Of a stretch of 64,000 nt of DNA, positions 1 to 55,751 are shown one piece after another (position 1 is the first letter of the stretch; each line of letters starts with the position of its first letter). A program made the position numbers and the translations under genes. Source of the DNA: an uncultured Candidatus Saccharibacteria bacterium (GTDB lineage: Bacteria; Patescibacteriota; Saccharimonadia; Saccharimonadales; UBA10212); assembly GCA_964567555.1 (NCBI GenBank), contig CAZMNA010000001.1:88911-152910 (forward strand). Reading direction: 5' to 3'. Under the pieces are notes generated by a model. It saw nothing but the letters and a program-made list of their open reading frames with translations, searched no databases and was not told where the DNA came from.

Positions 1-437
1 CAGGCCGCAGCCAGGCCAACCAAGCCGGTAAGGAGGCGAAGAGCTTGGATATAGACTTGATAGTAAGTTCACCATTAAAAAGAGCTAGCCAAACGGCAGA
101 AATTATCGCAAGCGAAATTGGTTACCCGAAAGATAAGATTGTTTATTCGGACCTTTTTATGGAGCGCGATTACGGTAGTATGCAGGGCCAGCCGTGGGAT
201 GGTGCCAATGTCATAAATTTCGACACGGTTTTGGGCGCCGAGAAAGAGAGAGCATTGTTAAAAAGAGCCACTGAAGGCGCAGATTTCCTTAAAAATATGC
301 CCAAGGACAATATACTTTTTATCGGGCACGGGACAAATGGAAGAGCGGTTTTACGCTCGCTGACCAAACAGGAAGGCGAAGTTGAACTTTCAATCGAAAA
401 CGAAATCCCCAACGGCCACCCGGTCCGTTGGATTTAA
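1..437 (+). CDS. histidine phosphatase (phosphoglycerate-mutase-like) family protein, 5'-partial
   Basis: Frame of track ORF 45..437 stays open to base 1. SSPLKRASQTAEII and LFIGHGTNGRA resemble histidine-phosphatase superfamily segments. The RHG region would lie upstream of the window. Confidence 0.7.
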   Translation, partial: GRSQANQAGKEAKSLDIDLIVSSPLKRASQTAEIIASEIGYPKDKIVYSDLFMERDYGSMQGQPWDGANVINFDTVLGAEKERALLKRATEGADFLKNMPKDNILFIGHGTNGRAVLRSLTKQEGEVELSIENEIPNGHPVRWI

Positions 438-457
438 CCTGCCCAGCCCAGGTATGG

Positions 458-967
458 CTAGGAGCTAAGCTGCCTACGAGCAACTTGCCGTTTATATTCC
501 ACCACCGTCAAATAAATGATAATAAGGTCAAAGATAGTTAAGAGCGTCAGGCCAACCGAAAACTTGACCAGGATTATTCTGTAAAGCTGGTAAATAACAA
601 AAAGAGCAGTCACTACAATCAGACCAACATACGCCCACATTCGGTCGCGCCAGACTTCCTCCACCAACACTAGTTTTACGATTCCGTGGCTAAGTAAGTA
701 AGCCGCCCCAAAGGCCAGTGATGCGCCGCTCAGATGATGTGCGGTGTCCAGGATGTGCTTGGCGATATAATCATGCGGGTTCTCGCTCAGCTCGCCCTGG
801 GTCAAGTGTTCGGCCCAACGGCTAATTTGGTCAGGCGAAATTACTAAAAGTAATACCCCTCCTATTACTTCCACCAAACCATCCAGCGCCTTAAACAGCA
901 GCCCGATTCTAAAGGCTCGGTCGGTTAGGTCTTTGGGGTGTTCTACCGGATTTACTGCCTGTGTCAT
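458..967 (-). CDS. DUF2127-like multi-TM membrane protein
   Basis: Track ORF 458..1003 starts at TTG. The first ATG (967) lies 7 nt after TAAACT (975-980), suggesting a leaderless start. Several hydrophobic helices. Confidence 0.6.
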   Translation of the reverse strand: MTQAVNPVEHPKDLTDRAFRIGLLFKALDGLVEVIGGVLLLVISPDQISRWAEHLTQGELSENPHDYIAKHILDTAHHLSGASLAFGAAYLLSHGIVKLVLVEEVWRDRMWAYVGLIVVTALFVIYQLYRIILVKFSVGLTLLTIFDLIIIYLTVVEYKRQVARRQLSS

Positions 968-2947: not shown

Positions 2948-3023
2948 GCAGGGTAGCTCAGTTGGTTAGAGCACAGGACTCATAAGCCTGGGGTCGCGAG
3001 TTCAAATCTCGCCCCTGCTACCA
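2948..3023 (+). tRNA. tRNA-Met (CAU), elongator-like
   Basis: 76-nt cloverleaf with anticodon loop CTCATAA, T-arm GCGAG/TTCAAAT/CTCGC and encoded CCA. Resembles E. coli elongator tRNA-Met from memory. One A:G mismatch at 31:39. Confidence 0.85.
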
Positions 3024-3030
3024 AATAAAA

Positions 3031-3063
3031 AGTCTGTTTGGTACAAAACAGACTTTTTATTTT
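3031..3063 (+). terminator. rho-independent terminator after tRNA-Met
   Basis: Stem AGTCTGTTT / AAACAGACT followed by TTTTTATTTT. Confidence 0.8.
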
Positions 3064-3236
3064 AAAGCTAGCTACTCGCTAGAATCGAATCTATATCTTT
3101 GAATTCCGGTGTGGTTTCCGGTAATTCTAAAGCAAGTACATCCATTTTTTGTTCCCCTTTTTTGTTTTTTATTTTTTGGACTTAAGACACATTATACATA
3201 AACATTATCAAAAGTCAAATAAAAGTGTTTGAATAT

Positions 3237-3253
3237 TGGCCGCTTTTATGCTT
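3237..3253 (+). promoter_or_regulatory. degenerate fifth copy of the GCTTATGCTTGCA element
   Basis: TGGCCGCTTTTATGCTT versus TGGCCGCTTATGCTT at 55147-55160. Lies about 125 nt upstream of the RRM gene. Confidence 0.3.
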
Positions 3254-3379
3254 AACTTTCCGCTAGGATCTTAGTCTTTTTAGTTCGAGCTTAGGCACGA
3301 CCATTTCGGACACGGCCGTTCGCAACCTCACTGACTAAGGGGTCGTACCTAGCAAGTTAAACAAGGATTTAAATTTAAA

Positions 3380-3634
3380 ATGTACAAGTTATTTGTAGGT
3401 GGTTTGCCTTTTTCAACCACCGATGACGAACTTAAAGAAGCTTTTGAAGCTCACGGCAAAGTGGCATCCGCCACGGTTGTTCGTGACCGCGACACCGGCC
3501 GCAGCAAAGGCTTTGGCTTCGTTGAGTTTGAAAACGAAGACGAAGGCAAAGCTGCCCAAGCAGCCATGAACGGCTCCGACATGGGCGGCCGTACTATCAT
3601 GGTTGACGTGGCTCGGCCAAAAGAAAACCGCTAA
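3380..3634 (+). CDS. RRM-type RNA-binding protein
   Basis: 84 aa. RNP-2 LFVGGL and RNP-1 KGFGFVEF motifs. Confidence 0.9.
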   Translation: MYKLFVGGLPFSTTDDELKEAFEAHGKVASATVVRDRDTGRSKGFGFVEFENEDEGKAAQAAMNGSDMGGRTIMVDVARPKENR

Positions 3635-3655
3635 TTTTAGAGGTTAACTCACGAG

Positions 3656-3684
3656 AAAACTCCCCATTTTTTGGGGAGTTTTTG
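3656..3684. terminator. bidirectional terminator between convergent RRM and sigma genes
   Basis: AAAACTCCCCA-ttttt-TGGGGAGTTTTT, with an A-run before and a T-run after. Confidence 0.8.
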
Positions 3685-3690
3685 TGTGGC

Positions 3691-4266
3691 CTAGGCTACT
3701 TCCTCTTCGCCCAAAATAGCATGTAACTTTGCCAGTCCGCGGGAAGCATGAGACTTAACTGTACCTAGCTTAATCCTAAGTTCGGCTGCAATTTGTTCAT
3801 AGGTCTTTCCCTCAAAATAAAACTTAAAAATAACAACCTGCTCCTGTTCAGAAAGCTTTTGGATTGCTTCCAAAATACGTTCTCTTTGTTCCCGTACGAT
3901 AACCTTCTTCTCAGGACTGTCTTCTCTACTTAGTATAGACAGGAGGTGGGGTTCGGGGTCAGTACTTATCTCATGGCTTCTTCTACCACGATGTTTTTTC
4001 AACTCGTCTTTTGATGTATTAATTAAAATGCTGTGCAGCCACGTCAACGGATGTGCTTCACCTCTAAATTGCCTGGATCTCTCCATAGCCTTCACGACGG
4101 TAGAATTCACATAATCATCTGGCTCTATTATGCTTCCGTGGGAACGCCTATCGCGTAAAATCTTCCGCGCCGCGTAAGCCGTCAAGGCCACTAGTGCCGT
4201 ACCTTCAAGTGCGTGTACCACCAGCTCTTTGTTGTCATCTGGCTTTGGCTCTTCATGTTTCGGCAT
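3691..4266 (-). CDS. sigma-70 family (ECF-like) RNA polymerase sigma factor
   Basis: Region 4 HTH KTYEQIAAELRIKLGTVKSHASRGLAKL, and region-2-like HPLTWLHSILINT. Track start 4311 is TTG. ATG at 4266 follows TATACT by 6 nt. Confidence 0.75.
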   Translation of the reverse strand: MPKHEEPKPDDNKELVVHALEGTALVALTAYAARKILRDRRSHGSIIEPDDYVNSTVVKAMERSRQFRGEAHPLTWLHSILINTSKDELKKHRGRRSHEISTDPEPHLLSILSREDSPEKKVIVREQRERILEAIQKLSEQEQVVIFKFYFEGKTYEQIAAELRIKLGTVKSHASRGLAKLHAILGEEEVA

Positions 4267-4341
4267 AATCGCAGTATAACGCTCGTTAAAGGACTTATCT
4301 AGATATAGCAATCTATCAGCTTACTCTACCGTAGCAGGCTA

Positions 4342-4359
4342 GAATTTAGCTGTTATGAG
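4342..4359 (+). promoter_or_regulatory. GAATTTAG-type intergenic motif, site 1
   Basis: GAATTTAGCTGTTATGAG in the sortase/sigma intergenic spacer. Related to sites at 52663, 55129 and 55459. Confidence 0.3.
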
Positions 4360-4448
4360 AATAAGTTGACCGAGTGGGAGCTCACGCTAAAAGTAGCCGC
4401 GGATCCCCGCCGCCTCGTCATATTCTCCCCTCCGGAGTAAACCACCGT

Positions 4449-4973
4449 CTAGTGCTGATGTGGCTTTACTAGTACCGCCCTTGCAGTCATCCAGTCGTCA
4501 CTTGTGTAGCGGGGCCAGCAGCAGCGGAAGAAGATTGTCTCAATATGGGGATGCTTCTTGCTATATCTCTCAATGTACCCGTTGCCTTTCCACTGTGGAT
4601 GTGGTTCAGGAGTCCGGACAAACCGGTACGTATACCACACACCGTTCCACCTGATCTTTGCGACGTAGCCTGGCTTGATCAGGTAGAGGTTATAGAACGG
4701 GCCGTGGGCGCCATAGCCTGGTACAGGCGTGACGTCGTGGCCATCGATCACCATCGTCTTGCTCATTCCGGGCCGAGCGTGGAAATTGTTATCCCAGACT
4801 GGGCCGAGCATCTCATGAGCGTCCGTATCCGTGCGGAGGATTTGCTTGTTGAAAATCCCCAGAGCCGGGATGGTCAGGAGAGTCCGGTTTCGCGGCTGGG
4901 CTGCGATACCGCTAGGCGCCGTAAGAACCATCGATGCCAGCACGGCAACGACGAGCAACATTACTCTTTTCAT
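4449..4973 (-). CDS. sortase family transpeptidase
   Basis: Signal/anchor MKRVMLLVVAVLASM after SD AAGAGG. LTIPALGI, VIDGHD, YNLYLIKPGYVAKI and a Cys-containing RCCWP segment match the sortase beta-barrel layout. Confidence 0.7.
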   Translation of the reverse strand: MKRVMLLVVAVLASMVLTAPSGIAAQPRNRTLLTIPALGIFNKQILRTDTDAHEMLGPVWDNNFHARPGMSKTMVIDGHDVTPVPGYGAHGPFYNLYLIKPGYVAKIRWNGVWYTYRFVRTPEPHPQWKGNGYIERYSKKHPHIETIFFRCCWPRYTSDDWMTARAVLVKPHQH

Positions 4974-5233
4974 ACCTCTTTCCATGCTGTGTATCACCCT
5001 TTCTGAGTAAATTATAATGTGGAACACTACGAGCCGAGAAGCCTAAAAGTTCTAGACATCTCAAAACTTTAACGACTAAACTGTAACACTAATATTAAAA
5101 TCTGTCAAGAGGAGTATCGCCGCTCTCCGTCTGTTATTCAGTCATGGTAGCCGAAGTTCATTCGAATTGGAACGCTATCTTGGCAGAACTGGTTAGGTGG
5201 AAGACCCTATGCAGTGAGAGTACTCAGAGCCAG

Positions 5234-5917
5234 CTATTCTTCCTCGGCCTCTGACTCATCCGTAACTACTCTAATGGTGTCTCTTAAAAACACACCTGGT
5301 GCACGGCCAACATGAAGCTGAGCAGACGCACGATGAACGGTACACCTGTCTATCAAAACGGCTCTATCTTTTGGTGCTTTTTCCGAAGTGGTTGCGAACC
5401 ATTTGGATATGCCACCACTCAACGCTGGAACTGGACCAACATAAATTCGAGTAGGATTACCTCGGTGATTAACTATAACGGCTTCAGCATCGCCTAAAAA
5501 ACGGTCACGATGTGTCGTACCCGGGGGCGAAAAGGGTAATAGATTTCCTGTCATAGTATGTAAAATCGAAGCTGCTGAACGAACTTTGCCGACTCTATAA
5601 AGCAGCGCATGCGACAAAGCAGTGTCTGGGGATACTTCTCTATAATCCCTATAAAGGCCGTCAATTTGCGTGACTGCCATCTGTAAATTAGCAGTCAGAT
5701 TATCGGCGTTAACTTCGCCAGTTATATCTTCTGCAGAAGAAGAGGCACTTCGCCCAACAACTAACTTACCGACGGTGGCTACTGTGAGCTCACCGCCTGG
5801 GGAGATGCGAGTTTCGTATTTTACAGAGGCTTGCATCGACTGGTCGAATTCAGCCGAGTGCCAATTTGGTTGTATTTCACCTAAGTCATAGAAATGTGAA
5901 GAAACTACTTTTACCAT
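5234..5917 (-). CDS. hypothetical protein (orphan O1, 227 aa)
   Basis: Long ORF with an acidic C-terminus and no TM or signal peptide. Preceded by a TTGCAA-16-TAATAT promoter inside the repeated element. Confidence 0.6.
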   Translation of the reverse strand: MVKVVSSHFYDLGEIQPNWHSAEFDQSMQASVKYETRISPGGELTVATVGKLVVGRSASSSAEDITGEVNADNLTANLQMAVTQIDGLYRDYREVSPDTALSHALLYRVGKVRSAASILHTMTGNLLPFSPPGTTHRDRFLGDAEAVIVNHRGNPTRIYVGPVPALSGGISKWFATTSEKAPKDRAVLIDRCTVHRASAQLHVGRAPGVFLRDTIRVVTDESEAEEE

Positions 5918-5950
5918 TTGTGATTAAAATATTAAACCGAAATCATTAAC

Positions 5951-5979
5951 TTGCAAGCATAAGCCAAACAAAAAATTCC
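5951..5979 (-). promoter_or_regulatory. recurrent promoter-like element, copy 1
   Basis: Minus-strand GGAATTTTTTGTTTGGCTTATGCTTGCAA. 24 nt identical to 6604-6627. TTGCAA lies 16 nt from TAATAT (5929-5934). Confidence 0.6.
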
Positions 5980-5989
5980 CTGTTAATGT

Positions 5990-6559
5990 TTAGGCGGTAG
6001 TACTTGAACTTACTGCATCAGCAATATACGACTCAGGAAAACGCCTTCTCTGAAGCTCTTCAGCAGTCATGGTTTTTACGGCCTCGAGATAGCTTTCCAC
6101 TGACCACTGAAAGTTATTTAACTCTCGGCGCATTCGGTCTCCGAAGGGGGATGTCTCGGGTCTAGCAGCAGGATCTTCTATATCTGTACGTTTTAACTTT
6201 TCGTGATGTCTTGCAAGACCATCATTAAAATCATAGGTAAACCATTCTGACGATAACTCATCTTGCCAATGCGATTTAACAATCCCGAACCTTAGATGCA
6301 AACCAATGTCCTTACCATCAACTTGATAGGGTATCGGTACAACCGGCGTAAATGCTTCAATATCGTCTCCGCGCTGACGCTTTTCGGGTATGAGCTGTAG
6401 AAGAGTCTCAAAAATTAAGTCATACTTTTGCTCTGAGCTCAATCTTTCGAAGTCTACAGGCGTTTCAGGTTCTTCTTCAAGAATTGTACTTAACTTATCT
6501 TGCTCTGAATGAACAACAGTTCTTTGTTTCTGCACTCTAACCACTTGCTCTGGTTTCAC
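5990..6559 (-). CDS. hypothetical protein (orphan O2, 189 aa)
   Basis: Track ORF 5990..6745 runs through the promoter element and the tRNA fragment. GTG at 6559 has SD AAGGAG 6 nt upstream. Acidic and soluble. Confidence 0.55.
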   Translation of the reverse strand: MKPEQVVRVQKQRTVVHSEQDKLSTILEEEPETPVDFERLSSEQKYDLIFETLLQLIPEKRQRGDDIEAFTPVVPIPYQVDGKDIGLHLRFGIVKSHWQDELSSEWFTYDFNDGLARHHEKLKRTDIEDPAARPETSPFGDRMRRELNNFQWSVESYLEAVKTMTAEELQRRRFPESYIADAVSSSTTA

Positions 6560-6603
6560 ATTAAACTCCTTAACTACTATTACTCTAGAACTTGTTTTTA
6601 GAT

Positions 6604-6627
6604 TTGCAAGCATAAGCCAAACAAAAA
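6604..6627 (-). promoter_or_regulatory. recurrent promoter-like element, copy 2
   Basis: Minus-strand TTTTTGTTTGGCTTATGCTTGCAA, then 16 nt and TAGAGT. Confidence 0.6.
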
Positions 6628-6646
6628 GACCCCTTTTTACGGAGGT
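6621..6646 (-). terminator. terminator hairpin downstream of the tRNA-fragment copy
   Basis: Minus-strand GACCTC-cgtaaaa-GGGGTC followed by TTTTTGTTT. The G:U pair only works on the minus strand. Confidence 0.55.
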
Positions 6647-6661
6647 CAAAGTGCTTATGCT

Positions 6662-6682
6662 TGGTAGCGGGGGCAGGATTTG
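6662..6682 (-). repeat. 21-nt duplicate of the tRNA-fMet 3' end (T-loop to CCA), att-like
   Basis: CAAATCCTGCCCCCGCTACCA (minus) is identical to 6873-6893. No matching T-stem 5' strand, so this is not a second tRNA. Confidence 0.9.
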
Positions 6683-6838
6683 GTCACAGATATTTTTCCG
6701 TGCGGGAAAATTCCGCGACCCCGCCTCAGCTCGGGTGGCTGCCAAGCCACGCCGGGCTTCCGGCCGTCCGAACTGCCGCCAGGCAGTTCTCCCCTCCGAC
6801 CTCTACTCGGTCGCAGATCAAACATTGCCATGTGACCA
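6681..6838 (-). ncRNA. candidate structured RNA / integration remnant
   Basis: 8-bp closing stem TGGTCACA (6831-6838) / TGTGACCA (6681-6688). Two hairpins with identical TGGC loops (6735-6750, 6771-6788). GC-rich. The only ORFs are track artefacts. Confidence 0.3.
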
Positions 6839-6840
6839 CG

Positions 6841-6864
6841 AAAAAAGCCCCAGCAAGCTGGGAC
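6841..6864 (-). terminator. rho-independent terminator after tRNA-fMet
   Basis: Minus-strand CCCAG-cttg-CTGGG followed by GCTTTTTT. Confidence 0.7.
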
Positions 6865-6872
6865 CCTTTTCG

Positions 6873-6947
6873 TGGTAGCGGGGGCAGGATTTGCACCTGC
6901 GACCTCGTGGTTATGAGCCACGCGAGCTACTACTGCTCCACCCCGCG
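6873..6947 (-). tRNA. initiator tRNA-fMet (CAU)
   Basis: CGCGGGGTGGAGCAG... start typical of initiator tRNA, with a C1:U72 mismatch. Anticodon loop CTCATAA and encoded CCA. Coordinates cross-checked against track ORF 6655..6921. Confidence 0.9.
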
Positions 6948-7002
6948 ATATCTTGCCTCCCCTAAGGCTAGTAGGTTATTTTAGACGTTTTTAAGGGGTT
7001 AG

Positions 7003-7449
7003 TCAATTGCCCGGCACGTTGCGGCCAAGCAAGAAATCTTTCCAGGCGTCTAGGTTCTTTATGTAAGTTGGCTGCGTTTTTTTGGTCGTCTGGTTTTGAG
7101 TTGCCGTCAGGCTTTTATCGACATATTTCATGGCTGTAGCGTTAGAAATCAGCCAAACTTGCTCGCCTTGACCCGCCAAGCCCAGATCTTGCCGCGCCGC
7201 CAAGTCCAAGTATTGATTGGTCTTGTAGTATTGGTTTTCAAGCGCTGTGTTTTGGTTTTGCAGGTTGATAACAGCGTTTTGCTGCTTGAGCGTAGAAATT
7301 TGTTTTTGCAGCTCGTAATTGGTCTGGATAGTTTTAACGCCGCTCCAAGAAATCGCCAGCACAATCAGAACAAAGATATAAAGCCCGATGTCCTGCGGAC
7401 TTCGTTTAATTTTTCCTAGATGCAATAAAAAATTACTGAACATATCCAC
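7003..7449 (-). CDS. septum formation initiator family protein (FtsB/DivIC-like)
   Basis: N-terminal TM, then the coiled coil ELQKQISTLKQQNAVINLQNQNTALENQ, and YLDLAARQDLGL. Confidence 0.75.
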   Translation of the reverse strand: MDMFSNFLLHLGKIKRSPQDIGLYIFVLIVLAISWSGVKTIQTNYELQKQISTLKQQNAVINLQNQNTALENQYYKTNQYLDLAARQDLGLAGQGEQVWLISNATAMKYVDKSLTATQNQTTKKTQPTYIKNLDAWKDFLLGRNVPGN

Positions 7450-7512
7450 TTTTTAGCTTAGCAGTTTTTATGACCGGCAGCTTGAAAGCTATTTGTTATA
7501 CTGGCATGTGAT

Positions 7513-7588
7513 GGGGGAGTAGCTCAGGGGTTAGAGCAGGCGGCTCATAACCGCTTGGTCGCAGGTTCAAATCCTGCCTCCCCCACCA
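7513..7588 (+). tRNA. tRNA with CAU anticodon, tRNA-Ile2 (lysidine)-like
   Basis: Cloverleaf GGGGGAG.../CTCCCCC-A-CCA. GAGCAGGCGGCTCATAACCGCTTGGTCGC closely resembles E. coli ileX from memory. The Ile2 versus Met assignment is inference. Confidence 0.8.
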
Positions 7589-7613
7589 AATTTATTAATA
7601 TACTTGTAGATTC

Positions 7614-55128: not shown

Positions 55129-55163
55129 GAATTTAGATTTTTGAGTGGCCGCTTATGCTTGCA
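55129..55163 (+). promoter_or_regulatory. composite element: GAATTTAG site 3 plus GCTTATGCTTGCA copy 3
   Basis: GAATTTAGATTTTTGAGTGGCCGCTTATGCTTGCA. Coordinates cross-checked against track ORF 55111..55449. Confidence 0.55.
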
Positions 55164-55708: not shown

Positions 55709-55721
55709 GCTTATGCTTGCA
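55709..55721 (+). promoter_or_regulatory. GCTTATGCTTGCA element, copy 4
   Basis: TTTTGAGCGTCGCTTATGCTTGCAAGAAGC parallels copy 3, TTTTGAGTGGCCGCTTATGCTTGCAGAAAGC. Confidence 0.55.
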
Positions 55722-55751
55722 AGAAGCACCAGCCTATCCCAAAATATTGAT

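Follow-up and report, generated by a model that had tools for sequence, protein, structure and literature searches.

Does a second copy of a tRNA's 3' end, lying just behind the tRNA gene itself, mark the scar of a lost integrative element, or the tail of a small RNA? The question is raised by a stretch of 64,000 nucleotides, called the window in what follows, from an uncultured Candidatus Saccharibacteria bacterium (assembly GCA_964567555.1, contig CAZMNA010000001.1, positions 88,911 to 152,910). On its minus strand, at 6873..6947, ARAGORN, Rfam and alignment place a transfer RNA (tRNA) gene, tRNA-Met(CAU), which is of the initiator type (C1/U72 mismatch), has an encoded CCA, and will be called tRNA-fMet. 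Its last 21 nucleotides, from the T-loop to the CCA (CAAATCCTGCCCCCGCTACCA, 6873..6893), recur in the same orientation, again ending in CCA, at 6662..6682; the 21-mer reads TGGTAGCGGGGGCAGGATTTG on the plus strand, and shuffled sequences are expected to hold no such repeat. A preliminary description of the locus had noticed this recurrence, which is indeed exact, and had proposed either the scar of an almost fully deleted island or a small RNA gene with a tRNA-like tail. Judged by its sequence, the anatomy of the unit delimited by the two copies (6662..6872, 211 nt from CCA to CCA, with 190 nt between the repeats) appears to fit the RtT repeats of Escherichia coli much better than the scar of a deleted island. 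The reading that we develop here, and in which our confidence is evenly divided, takes the unit for a tRNA trailer of the RtT type: part of the initiator-tRNA gene would have been duplicated and rearranged into a small element, lodged between the tRNA and its original terminator. The RtT-like anatomy of the unit is well supported; its expression, processing and function we infer.

Read in the direction of the tRNA, the unit contains a hairpin T1, a mirrored degenerate copy of the T arm, further degenerate tRNA-like pieces, a G+C-rich core, and the exact 21-nt end copy with its CCA. T1, seen in the sequence and by folding at 6836..6875, is a perfect hairpin of 40 nt (CCACGAAAAGGGUCCCAGC..GCUGGGGCUUUUUUCGUGG) that includes the CCA of the tRNA and is followed by U6: it resembles a terminator but is not listed by a simple terminator scan, and A and T tracts flank it on both sides. 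The mirrored piece, X' (6809..6829, GGCAATGTTTGATCTGCGACC against GGCAGGATTTGCACCTGCGACC), corresponds to positions 44-65 of the tRNA, and the sum of the three best inverted alignments between the window's unit and its own tRNA was reached in none of 300 shuffles. Folding then predicts a hairpin H1 (6797..6813, stem CGACC/GGUCG, loop GAGUAGA), which makes the turn from the mirrored copy to the next direct piece, a degenerate copy of tRNA positions 42-65 (GAGGTCGGAGGGGAGAACTGCC, 6782..6803) recognised, like X', by its similarity to the tRNA. Behind the end copy stands T2, a terminator GACCTCCGTAAAAAGGGGTC with its T-run (6647..6618), set within a longer palindrome CAAGCATAAGC (6607..6663, in which 6607..6617 pairs with 6653..6663) that was detected by terminator scan and self-BLAST; the T2 hairpin itself, 6647..6628 followed by the T-run, is listed by the simple scan. 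The spacer has a G+C content of 58-64%, against about 45% in its surroundings. All the hairpins listed earlier were found again: an 8-bp inverted repeat 6681..6688/6831..6838 (TGGTCACA/TGTGACCA), two hairpins at 6735..6750 and 6771..6788 with identical loops (GCCA on the plus strand, UGGC on the minus strand), and both terminators. The earlier picture of a duplication around a spacer was right about the duplication but incomplete, since the spacer also holds degenerate pieces of the tRNA in both orientations.

How widespread is this arrangement? Lineages were sampled through their homologues of the neighbouring DivIC-like gene, which makes the sample unbiased with respect to the element; numbers preceded by L designate fetched loci. 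In 6 of the 14 Saccharibacteria lineages so sampled, we find a common layout: tRNA-fMet, hairpin T1, spacer, an exact copy of 17-25 nt of the tRNA's 3' end down to the CCA, and the original terminator. The remaining 8 (L002, L263, L264, L265, L269, L281, L282 and L283) are empty sites, in which the tRNA is directly followed by a single terminator. From CCA to CCA, the unit measures 211 nt in the window's species (copy of 21 nt), 207 nt in L259-261 (21 nt), 176 nt in L253-258 (25 nt), 177 nt in L268 (25 nt) and 171 nt in L003 (17 nt); in L271, the copy is truncated and its CCA end is lost. A DNA-pattern scan of metagenomes added the occupied loci L035, L089, L108 and L038, the last more distant and with the order tRNA-Met, DivIC-like gene, tRNA-fMet preserved. 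The copy tracks the sequence of the local tRNA, with CCTGG in L003 and GCAACCA in L268. A third copy of the 3' end, the sign of a tandem repetition, was found neither in the window nor in any related locus, and the window's other three tRNAs have no second copy of theirs.

The polymorphism between empty and occupied sites, which the preliminary description had left to comparison, does exist among relatives, and it delimits the unit. The empty L264 has, right behind its tRNA, a homologue of the sequence that stands behind the second copy in the occupied L035: the unit thus consists of T1, spacer and copy, and T2 is the ancestral trailer. T2 is also homologous to the post-copy sequence in L253, which again makes it the ancestral trailer of the tRNA, and homologous trailers are shared among the empty L264, L281 and L269 and the occupied L035, L253 and L268. 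Within species we saw no polymorphism: the site is occupied in each of 8 contigs from the window's species and 6 from that of L253. The orientation is also the same in all of them, and a switch inverting between the inverted repeats was rejected for that reason.

The spacers fall into at least four mutually dissimilar types, A to D. Type A comprises the window and L259; type B comprises L253, L035, L268 and L271. All types nevertheless contain T1, a mirrored degenerate copy of the T arm, a turn, and direct tRNA-like sequence, broken in or near its T-loop by 75-125 nt, after which comes the exact end copy. The inverted similarity of the unit to its own tRNA is significant in types A and D, in only some lineages of type B, and not in type C; in types C and D, the insert splits the T-loop without a duplicated overlap region. 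In type B, the two ends are invariant and mutually complementary while the middle is variable, and the pairing of the 5' arm, GGGGCAGyCUGCACC, with the copy far exceeds that of shuffled sequences.

Such an anatomy is found in the tyrT-tyrV-rttR locus of E. coli. There, the last 19 nt of tRNA-Tyr, from the start of the T-loop to the CCA end, recur at a spacing of 175-178 nt, one copy lying between the two tRNA genes and three after tyrV. The annotated small RNA rttR, 171 nt long and equivalent to one repeat unit of the tyrT operon (PMC3318445), ends at the CCA of a copy, and the Rfam model RF00391 matches all four units with 133-137 bits. In the consensus of this model, a mirrored strand (GgGaaGG) pairs with the copy (CCuuCcC) and leaves ccaCCACCA free; the E. 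coli unit indeed contains a mirrored T arm (19 of 22 positions) as well as a degenerate collinear copy of the tRNA (p = 0.016). The rtT RNA has been tied to processing of the tyrT transcript and, probably, to the stringent response, its mode of action being unknown (bioRxiv 10.1101/2024.07.17.603846).

Both elements, that of E. coli and that of Saccharibacteria, lie directly downstream of a tRNA gene, on its strand; both end in an exact copy of its 3' end from T-loop to CCA, of 19 nt in E. coli and 17-25 nt here; the periods are 175-178 nt and 171-211 nt; and both contain a mirrored copy of the T arm that may pair with the end copy, along with degenerate tRNA-like sequence in direct orientation. 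Outside the closing helix, the acceptor 3' strand and the CCA stay free, a point on which the Rfam consensus matches type B, and the presence or copy number of the element varies among strains or lineages. There are also differences: there is no detectable homology to RF00391, the tRNA is an initiator Met tRNA of Saccharibacteria rather than a Tyr tRNA of Enterobacteria, a single unit replaces the tandem array, four or more unrelated cores are found at one position, and the small tpr reading frame has no counterpart. Going by sequence features, we would therefore call the Saccharibacteria unit an analogue of RtT, something of the same kind, and not a member of the family.

On the RtT-type reading, RNA polymerase would read through T1, so that the unit would be transcribed from the promoter of the tRNA, a TTGACT-17 nt-TAAAAT motif about 30 nt upstream of it (6978..7006, minus strand) that is the sole promoter-like site detected by a simple promoter and terminator scan in 6450..7100. 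The cut that releases the tRNA's 3' end would create the 5' end of the unit, unless RNase P cuts instead at the tRNA-like stem S1, near 6781. The complementary strand upstream would hold the end copy in a helix, thus presenting an acceptor-like end, and the enzymes that mature tRNA 3' ends would trim the RNA to the CCA at 6662. One would expect the product to be a stable RNA, 120-210 nt long and made in parallel with the initiator tRNA; by analogy with RtT of E. coli, it may be a regulatory by-product of the transcription of the tRNA operon. Such a unit would have arisen by a direct-inverted-direct partial duplication of the 3' half of the tRNA gene, and would be lost by recombination between its two direct copies.

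The 3' domain of the unit comprises the 121 nt from 6782 to 6662 on the minus strand. They are predicted to fold into a three-way tRNA-like structure (z = -3.7) in which the centroid coincides with the structure of minimum free energy. Stem S1, acceptor-like and 6 bp long, joins 6776..6781 to 6665..6670, and is followed by a free CCA at 6662..6664. Arm II (6672..6725) resembles a T-stem: it uses the CCUGCC of the copy, stacks on S1, and carries a variable hairpin at 6694..6710. The acceptor-like and T-stem-like helices thus count 6 + 6 pairs, and on the 3' strand a single bulged base separates them. Stem S2 (6768..6775 with 6727..6734) bears the hairpins H3 (6751..6764) and H4 (6735..6750), which align weakly with the D and anticodon arms. 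An alternative hairpin predicted at 6771..6788, AACUGCC UGGC GGCAGUU, would compete with S1 and S2 for the same bases. The corresponding domain of L259 folds alike on its own sequence, with a different hairpin at the same place; the two domains are separated by two double compensatory changes, and the core shows only three differences, which leave S1 paired or one pair shorter.

The domain invites comparison with the tRNA-like domain of transfer-messenger RNA (tmRNA), with the tRNA-like structures of plant viruses and with acceptor/T-arm minihelices: what they share is a predicted acceptor-like helix stacked on a T-stem-like helix, with a free CCA. Here, however, the 3' strand repeats the neighbouring tRNA letter for letter, and the whole goes unrecognised by ARAGORN and Rfam. 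Indeed, neither ARAGORN nor the models RF00005 and RF00023 report a tRNA or tmRNA in 6662..6872, which disposes of a tmRNA or a second tRNA as candidates, and the Rfam scan of the spacer that the preliminary description had proposed gave no match at gathering scores or at E <= 10, so that a known RNA family was also rejected. The small RNA with a tRNA-like tail proposed in that description fits better than the scar, since both type A lineages are predicted to have the 121-nt fold and its free CCA and since the anatomy is that of E. coli RtT; the covariation that would confirm it is too thin, with two sequences.

Folding also bears on the possibility that the opposite strand is the functional one. 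It would then be an antisense RNA, or a folded single-stranded DNA, beginning with 21 nt complementary to the 3' end of the initiator tRNA, and acting like a primer-binding site, or like the attC sites of integrons or the attP site of the CTX phage. Region 6655..6875 folds better than shuffles on the plus strand (z = -4.8) as well as on the minus strand (z = -5.6); the A and T tracts on both sides of T1 could let it terminate transcription both ways; and the conserved complementary ends of type B, around a variable middle, recall attC sites. On the other hand, no promoter-like site faces that way in 6450..7100, and the gene tables show no reverse transcriptase or recombinase nearby. The plus strand of the 121-nt domain folds worse (z = -2.3), into an ill-defined ensemble without a defined centroid, and the G-U pairs in the helices shared by the type A sequences would turn into A-C mismatches. 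We give this explanation hardly any credence. The choice of a strand by folding energy over all types was tried and abandoned: there is no consistent preference, and only the 121-nt domain favours the strand of the tRNA. The same holds for a universal acceptor/T-arm minihelix, which against dinucleotide shuffles is significant in types B and D only, and which we do not claim for type A on grounds of energy.

Several observations weigh against an RtT-type trailer. The main obstacle to its expression is T1, an efficient-looking terminator between the promoter and the unit, when no such terminator precedes rttR in E. coli; nor did the scan of 6450..7100 detect a promoter-like site inside the unit. 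The model RF00391, whose gathering score is 45 bits, has no match at E <= 10 in window 6500..7100, L038, L259, L035 or L089. Covariation in type A is weak and drawn from two sequences, the count of pairs compatible with the fold being equalled by 134 of 500 shuffles, and in type B the stems are invariant and lend no covariation support. When the 3' domain is compared collinearly with the tRNA, the similarity is borderline (p = 0.05 in the window, 0.27 in L259), and the z-scores of whole-unit folds show no consistent strand preference across types. Between the copy and its partner strand, pairing is clearly better than in shuffles for type B (matched by 0-7 of 1000) and for type D (30 of 1000), and not for types A and C: in the window, the mirrored fragment 6809..6829 is present, but its pairing energy with the copy does not exceed that of shuffles. 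Finally, the window and L253 have homologous flanks around unrelated cores, a situation that resembles an exchange of cassettes and that a simple, vertically inherited RNA gene does not predict.

Conservation speaks for the trailer reading. The conserved core of type A, 103 nt at 6714..6816, is in alignment 97% identical to that of L259/L260 (GCA_016187125.1), with a 1-nt indel inside the core. Identity between the same two lineages is 65% in the DivIC protein, 72-74% in the DNA of protein genes and 87-88% in the two other tRNA-CAU genes, and tRNA-fMet does not differ at all; different hairpins have taken the places of T1 and of one peripheral hairpin. The comparison shows a type A core that is, at the level of its nucleotides, as conserved as a tRNA. 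The closest relatives of the window's DivIC outside its own species do not exceed 70% identity.

The RtT-type reading must here be set against the idea of a non-functional by-product. A template switch during replication, at the terminator hairpin of the tRNA, would triplicate parts of the tRNA's 3' half, in direct-inverted-direct order and with some filler; the product would be harmless and occasionally deleted by way of its direct repeats. The layout of all types, X followed by a hairpin, a mirrored X', a turn and X again, is what such a switch would leave, and the type A spacer is pieced together from tRNA-like fragments that run in either direction. Orphan T-arm-like fragments downstream of T2 in L268, L271 and L281, losses and truncation (the empty sites, and L271 without its CCA end), and the fact that covariation is not demonstrated also agree with it. 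However, 103 neutral nucleotides would not stay 97% identical between lineages that diverged to the extent just described, type B keeps invariant ends in four lineages around a diverging middle, and one would not expect compact genomes such as those of Saccharibacteria to carry a 200-nt passenger in many lineages. We consider the by-product a rather improbable explanation. As for the orphan fragments, the one in L281 (GGTGCAAATCCTGCC, around 5799-5813) lies past the ancestral terminator and matches the tRNA of other lineages, not its own, which has a GCCGG/CCGGC stem; those of L268 and L271 are GAGGTTCCAATCCTGCTAGG-like T-arm pieces about 50 nt after T2. They may be older, decayed units.

Two other origins for the spacer were examined and rejected. 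A repeat of the type of miniature inverted-repeat transposable elements or REPINs would be dispersed: BLAST of 6600..6960 against the 64-kb window found no other copy of the core, and in the fetched loci cores occur only behind tRNA-fMet. Protein coding fares no better. Automatic gene callers predict a 73-aa protein across the spacer, at 6651..6878 on the plus strand of the window and at 6566..6787 in L243, though in some of the public copies of the locus only, and this is almost certainly a false call: long frames consist only of overlapping calls, and no frame survives the 1-nt indel that separates the two type A cores, which rules coding out.

We now turn to the scar. A displaced fragment of a tRNA's 3' end as the footprint of an integrase island is, in general, sound, as described for Islander (PMC4383910). 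In the present case, a tyrosine recombinase crossing over in the T-loop of tRNA-fMet would have inserted an element of which the remnant, or the whole, amounts to two attP arms between attL, in the tRNA, and attR, the 21-nt copy. The direct repeat from T-loop to CCA, beside an intact tRNA, is the classic footprint of the attachment (att) sites of tyrosine-integrase islands and prophages, and relatives do have empty and occupied sites, with precise joints in the comparison of L264 with L035. The unrelated cores of types A and B within the homologous flanks of the window and L253, the 0-4 genes found between tRNA-fMet and the gene of an RNA recognition motif (RRM) protein according to lineage, the large serine recombinase and phage-like genes at the tRNA-fMet spot in L283, and the use of tRNA-fMet 3' ends as att sites in other phyla all point the same way.

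Against these stands, first, the lack of any machinery: gene calling within 6 kb of the window's unit yields no recombinase or integrase, and none was seen beside the occupied loci that have gene tables. There is no cargo either, only 190 nt between the repeats, and what lies there is a conserved, structured interior with a mirrored piece of the tRNA, which att sites do not need. Four unrelated types have a uniform size of 171-211 nt, and independent deletions would not yield such uniformity. Between distant lineages, the core shows the conservation of a tRNA while T1 and a peripheral hairpin have been replaced; types C and D split the T-loop without a duplicated overlap region; the contigs compared within species are all occupied; and the RtT repeats of E. 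coli leave the same footprint without being integrative elements. Scans of viral contigs, which covered neither plasmids nor whole genomes, returned no type A core and no type B arm, and with the 3' end of the clade's own tRNA returned phage-borne tRNAs only: with these three core- or clade-specific scans, we also set aside a phage or plasmid origin. The distal att site that the preliminary description suggested looking for did not turn up, the 21-mer occurring elsewhere in the 64-kb window, at up to 3 mismatches, solely in the two other tRNA-CAU genes. The deleted island thus keeps a sound footprint and a real polymorphism, and loses on the absent integrase, the uniform size, the tRNA-like conservation of the core, the negative viral scans and the mirrored piece; we think it unlikely.

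Integration does seem to occur at this tRNA in other lineages. In L283 (5694-7244) and L284 (3138-4688), a gene for a 516-aa large serine recombinase, with small genes and a helix-turn-helix regulator, lies directly after the terminator of tRNA-fMet; this looks like a phage-like element integrated at the same spot, and it has no repeat of the tRNA end. In eight metagenome loci of another lineage (L012, L017, L060, L071, L073, L079, L095 and L103), unrelated DNA is joined to 12-20 nt of the 3' end of tRNA-fMet and then to a conserved terminator CGAAAACTGAGAACCCGGCCATGTGCCGGGTTTTTTG: from their sequences, these joints resemble the classic attR junctions that different islands would leave at tRNA-fMet. 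Similar contexts outside tRNA genes occur in about nine viral contigs.

If the unit is an RtT-type trailer, what could it do? A bolder conjecture, in which we place little confidence, is that Saccharibacteria carry a family of small RNAs, exchangeable for one another, that mimic the acceptor end of the initiator letter for letter; they would stem from the transcript of the initiator tRNA and be constrained as a tRNA is. They would engage or titrate a factor that reads this end, or report the activity of the tRNA operon, a role already proposed for RtT, and the core types would be alleles swapped by way of the flanking repeats. Candidate factors would be the formyltransferase, the CCA-adding or repair enzymes, RNase P, or a toxin acting on acceptor ends. 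Were this true, RtT-type trailers would form a general and repeatedly invented class of tRNA-derived regulators, and not an oddity of E. coli.

RtT has so far been an isolated curiosity of enterobacterial tyrT operons, with an unsettled function. Finding the same grammar behind a different tRNA, in a distant phylum with reduced genomes, suggests that tRNA genes repeatedly spawn trailer RNAs that borrow their own 3' end, and it gives a comparative handle on the role of such RNAs. It is also a warning for programs that search for islands: a displaced tRNA 3' fragment near its tRNA is not always an integration scar. Even if the unit is not expressed, it still documents a recurrent direct-inverted-direct rearrangement at tRNA terminators.

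The tRNA itself has an unusual elbow, with a T-loop UGCAAAU (G at position 55) and a D-loop AGUAGUA that lacks the usual GG. In L271, the T-loop is UGAAAAU; in the more distant relatives L002, L003 and L283, the T-loop is the canonical UUCGAGU and the D-loop has its GG, which implies that both loops changed together. The surroundings of the unit contain a DivIC-like gene, whose relatives carry Saccharibacteria annotation, and genes for Dus, RuvA/C, a sortase and a sigma factor. The position of tRNA-fMet with respect to DivIC varies: they adjoin on opposite strands in L269, L270 and L282, and are about 2.6 kb apart in L259, so that the tRNA gene must have been inverted or moved several times. 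The stretch from tRNA-fMet to the RRM gene (3023..6662 in the window; also compared in L253, L263, L264, L265, L269, L271 and L281) is hypervariable, with 0-4 unrelated genes: two of unknown function, the sortase and the sigma factor in the window, and elsewhere cupredoxin, LysM, NlpC/P60 and radical SAM genes, a recombinase being seen in L283 only.

Within this stretch, an exact 24-nt repeat, TTTGCAAGCATAAGCCAAACAAAA on the plus strand, occurs at 6604..6627 and 5951..5974, preceding two adjacent minus-strand genes of unknown function (5990..6559 and 5234..5917). On the minus strand it contains TTGCAA and resembles a shared -35 region; shorter matches of 13-14 nt are found at 55151..55163 and 55709..55722. 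Finally, the locus L259 (GCA_016187125.1) holds a group I intron at 340-627 (Rfam 72 bits, E = 8e-17, match at 403-601, minus strand). It interrupts the orthologue of the window's tRNA-Met 7513..7588, and the break falls at the anticodon loop, since window segments 7510..7547 and 7543..7589 align to either side of it.

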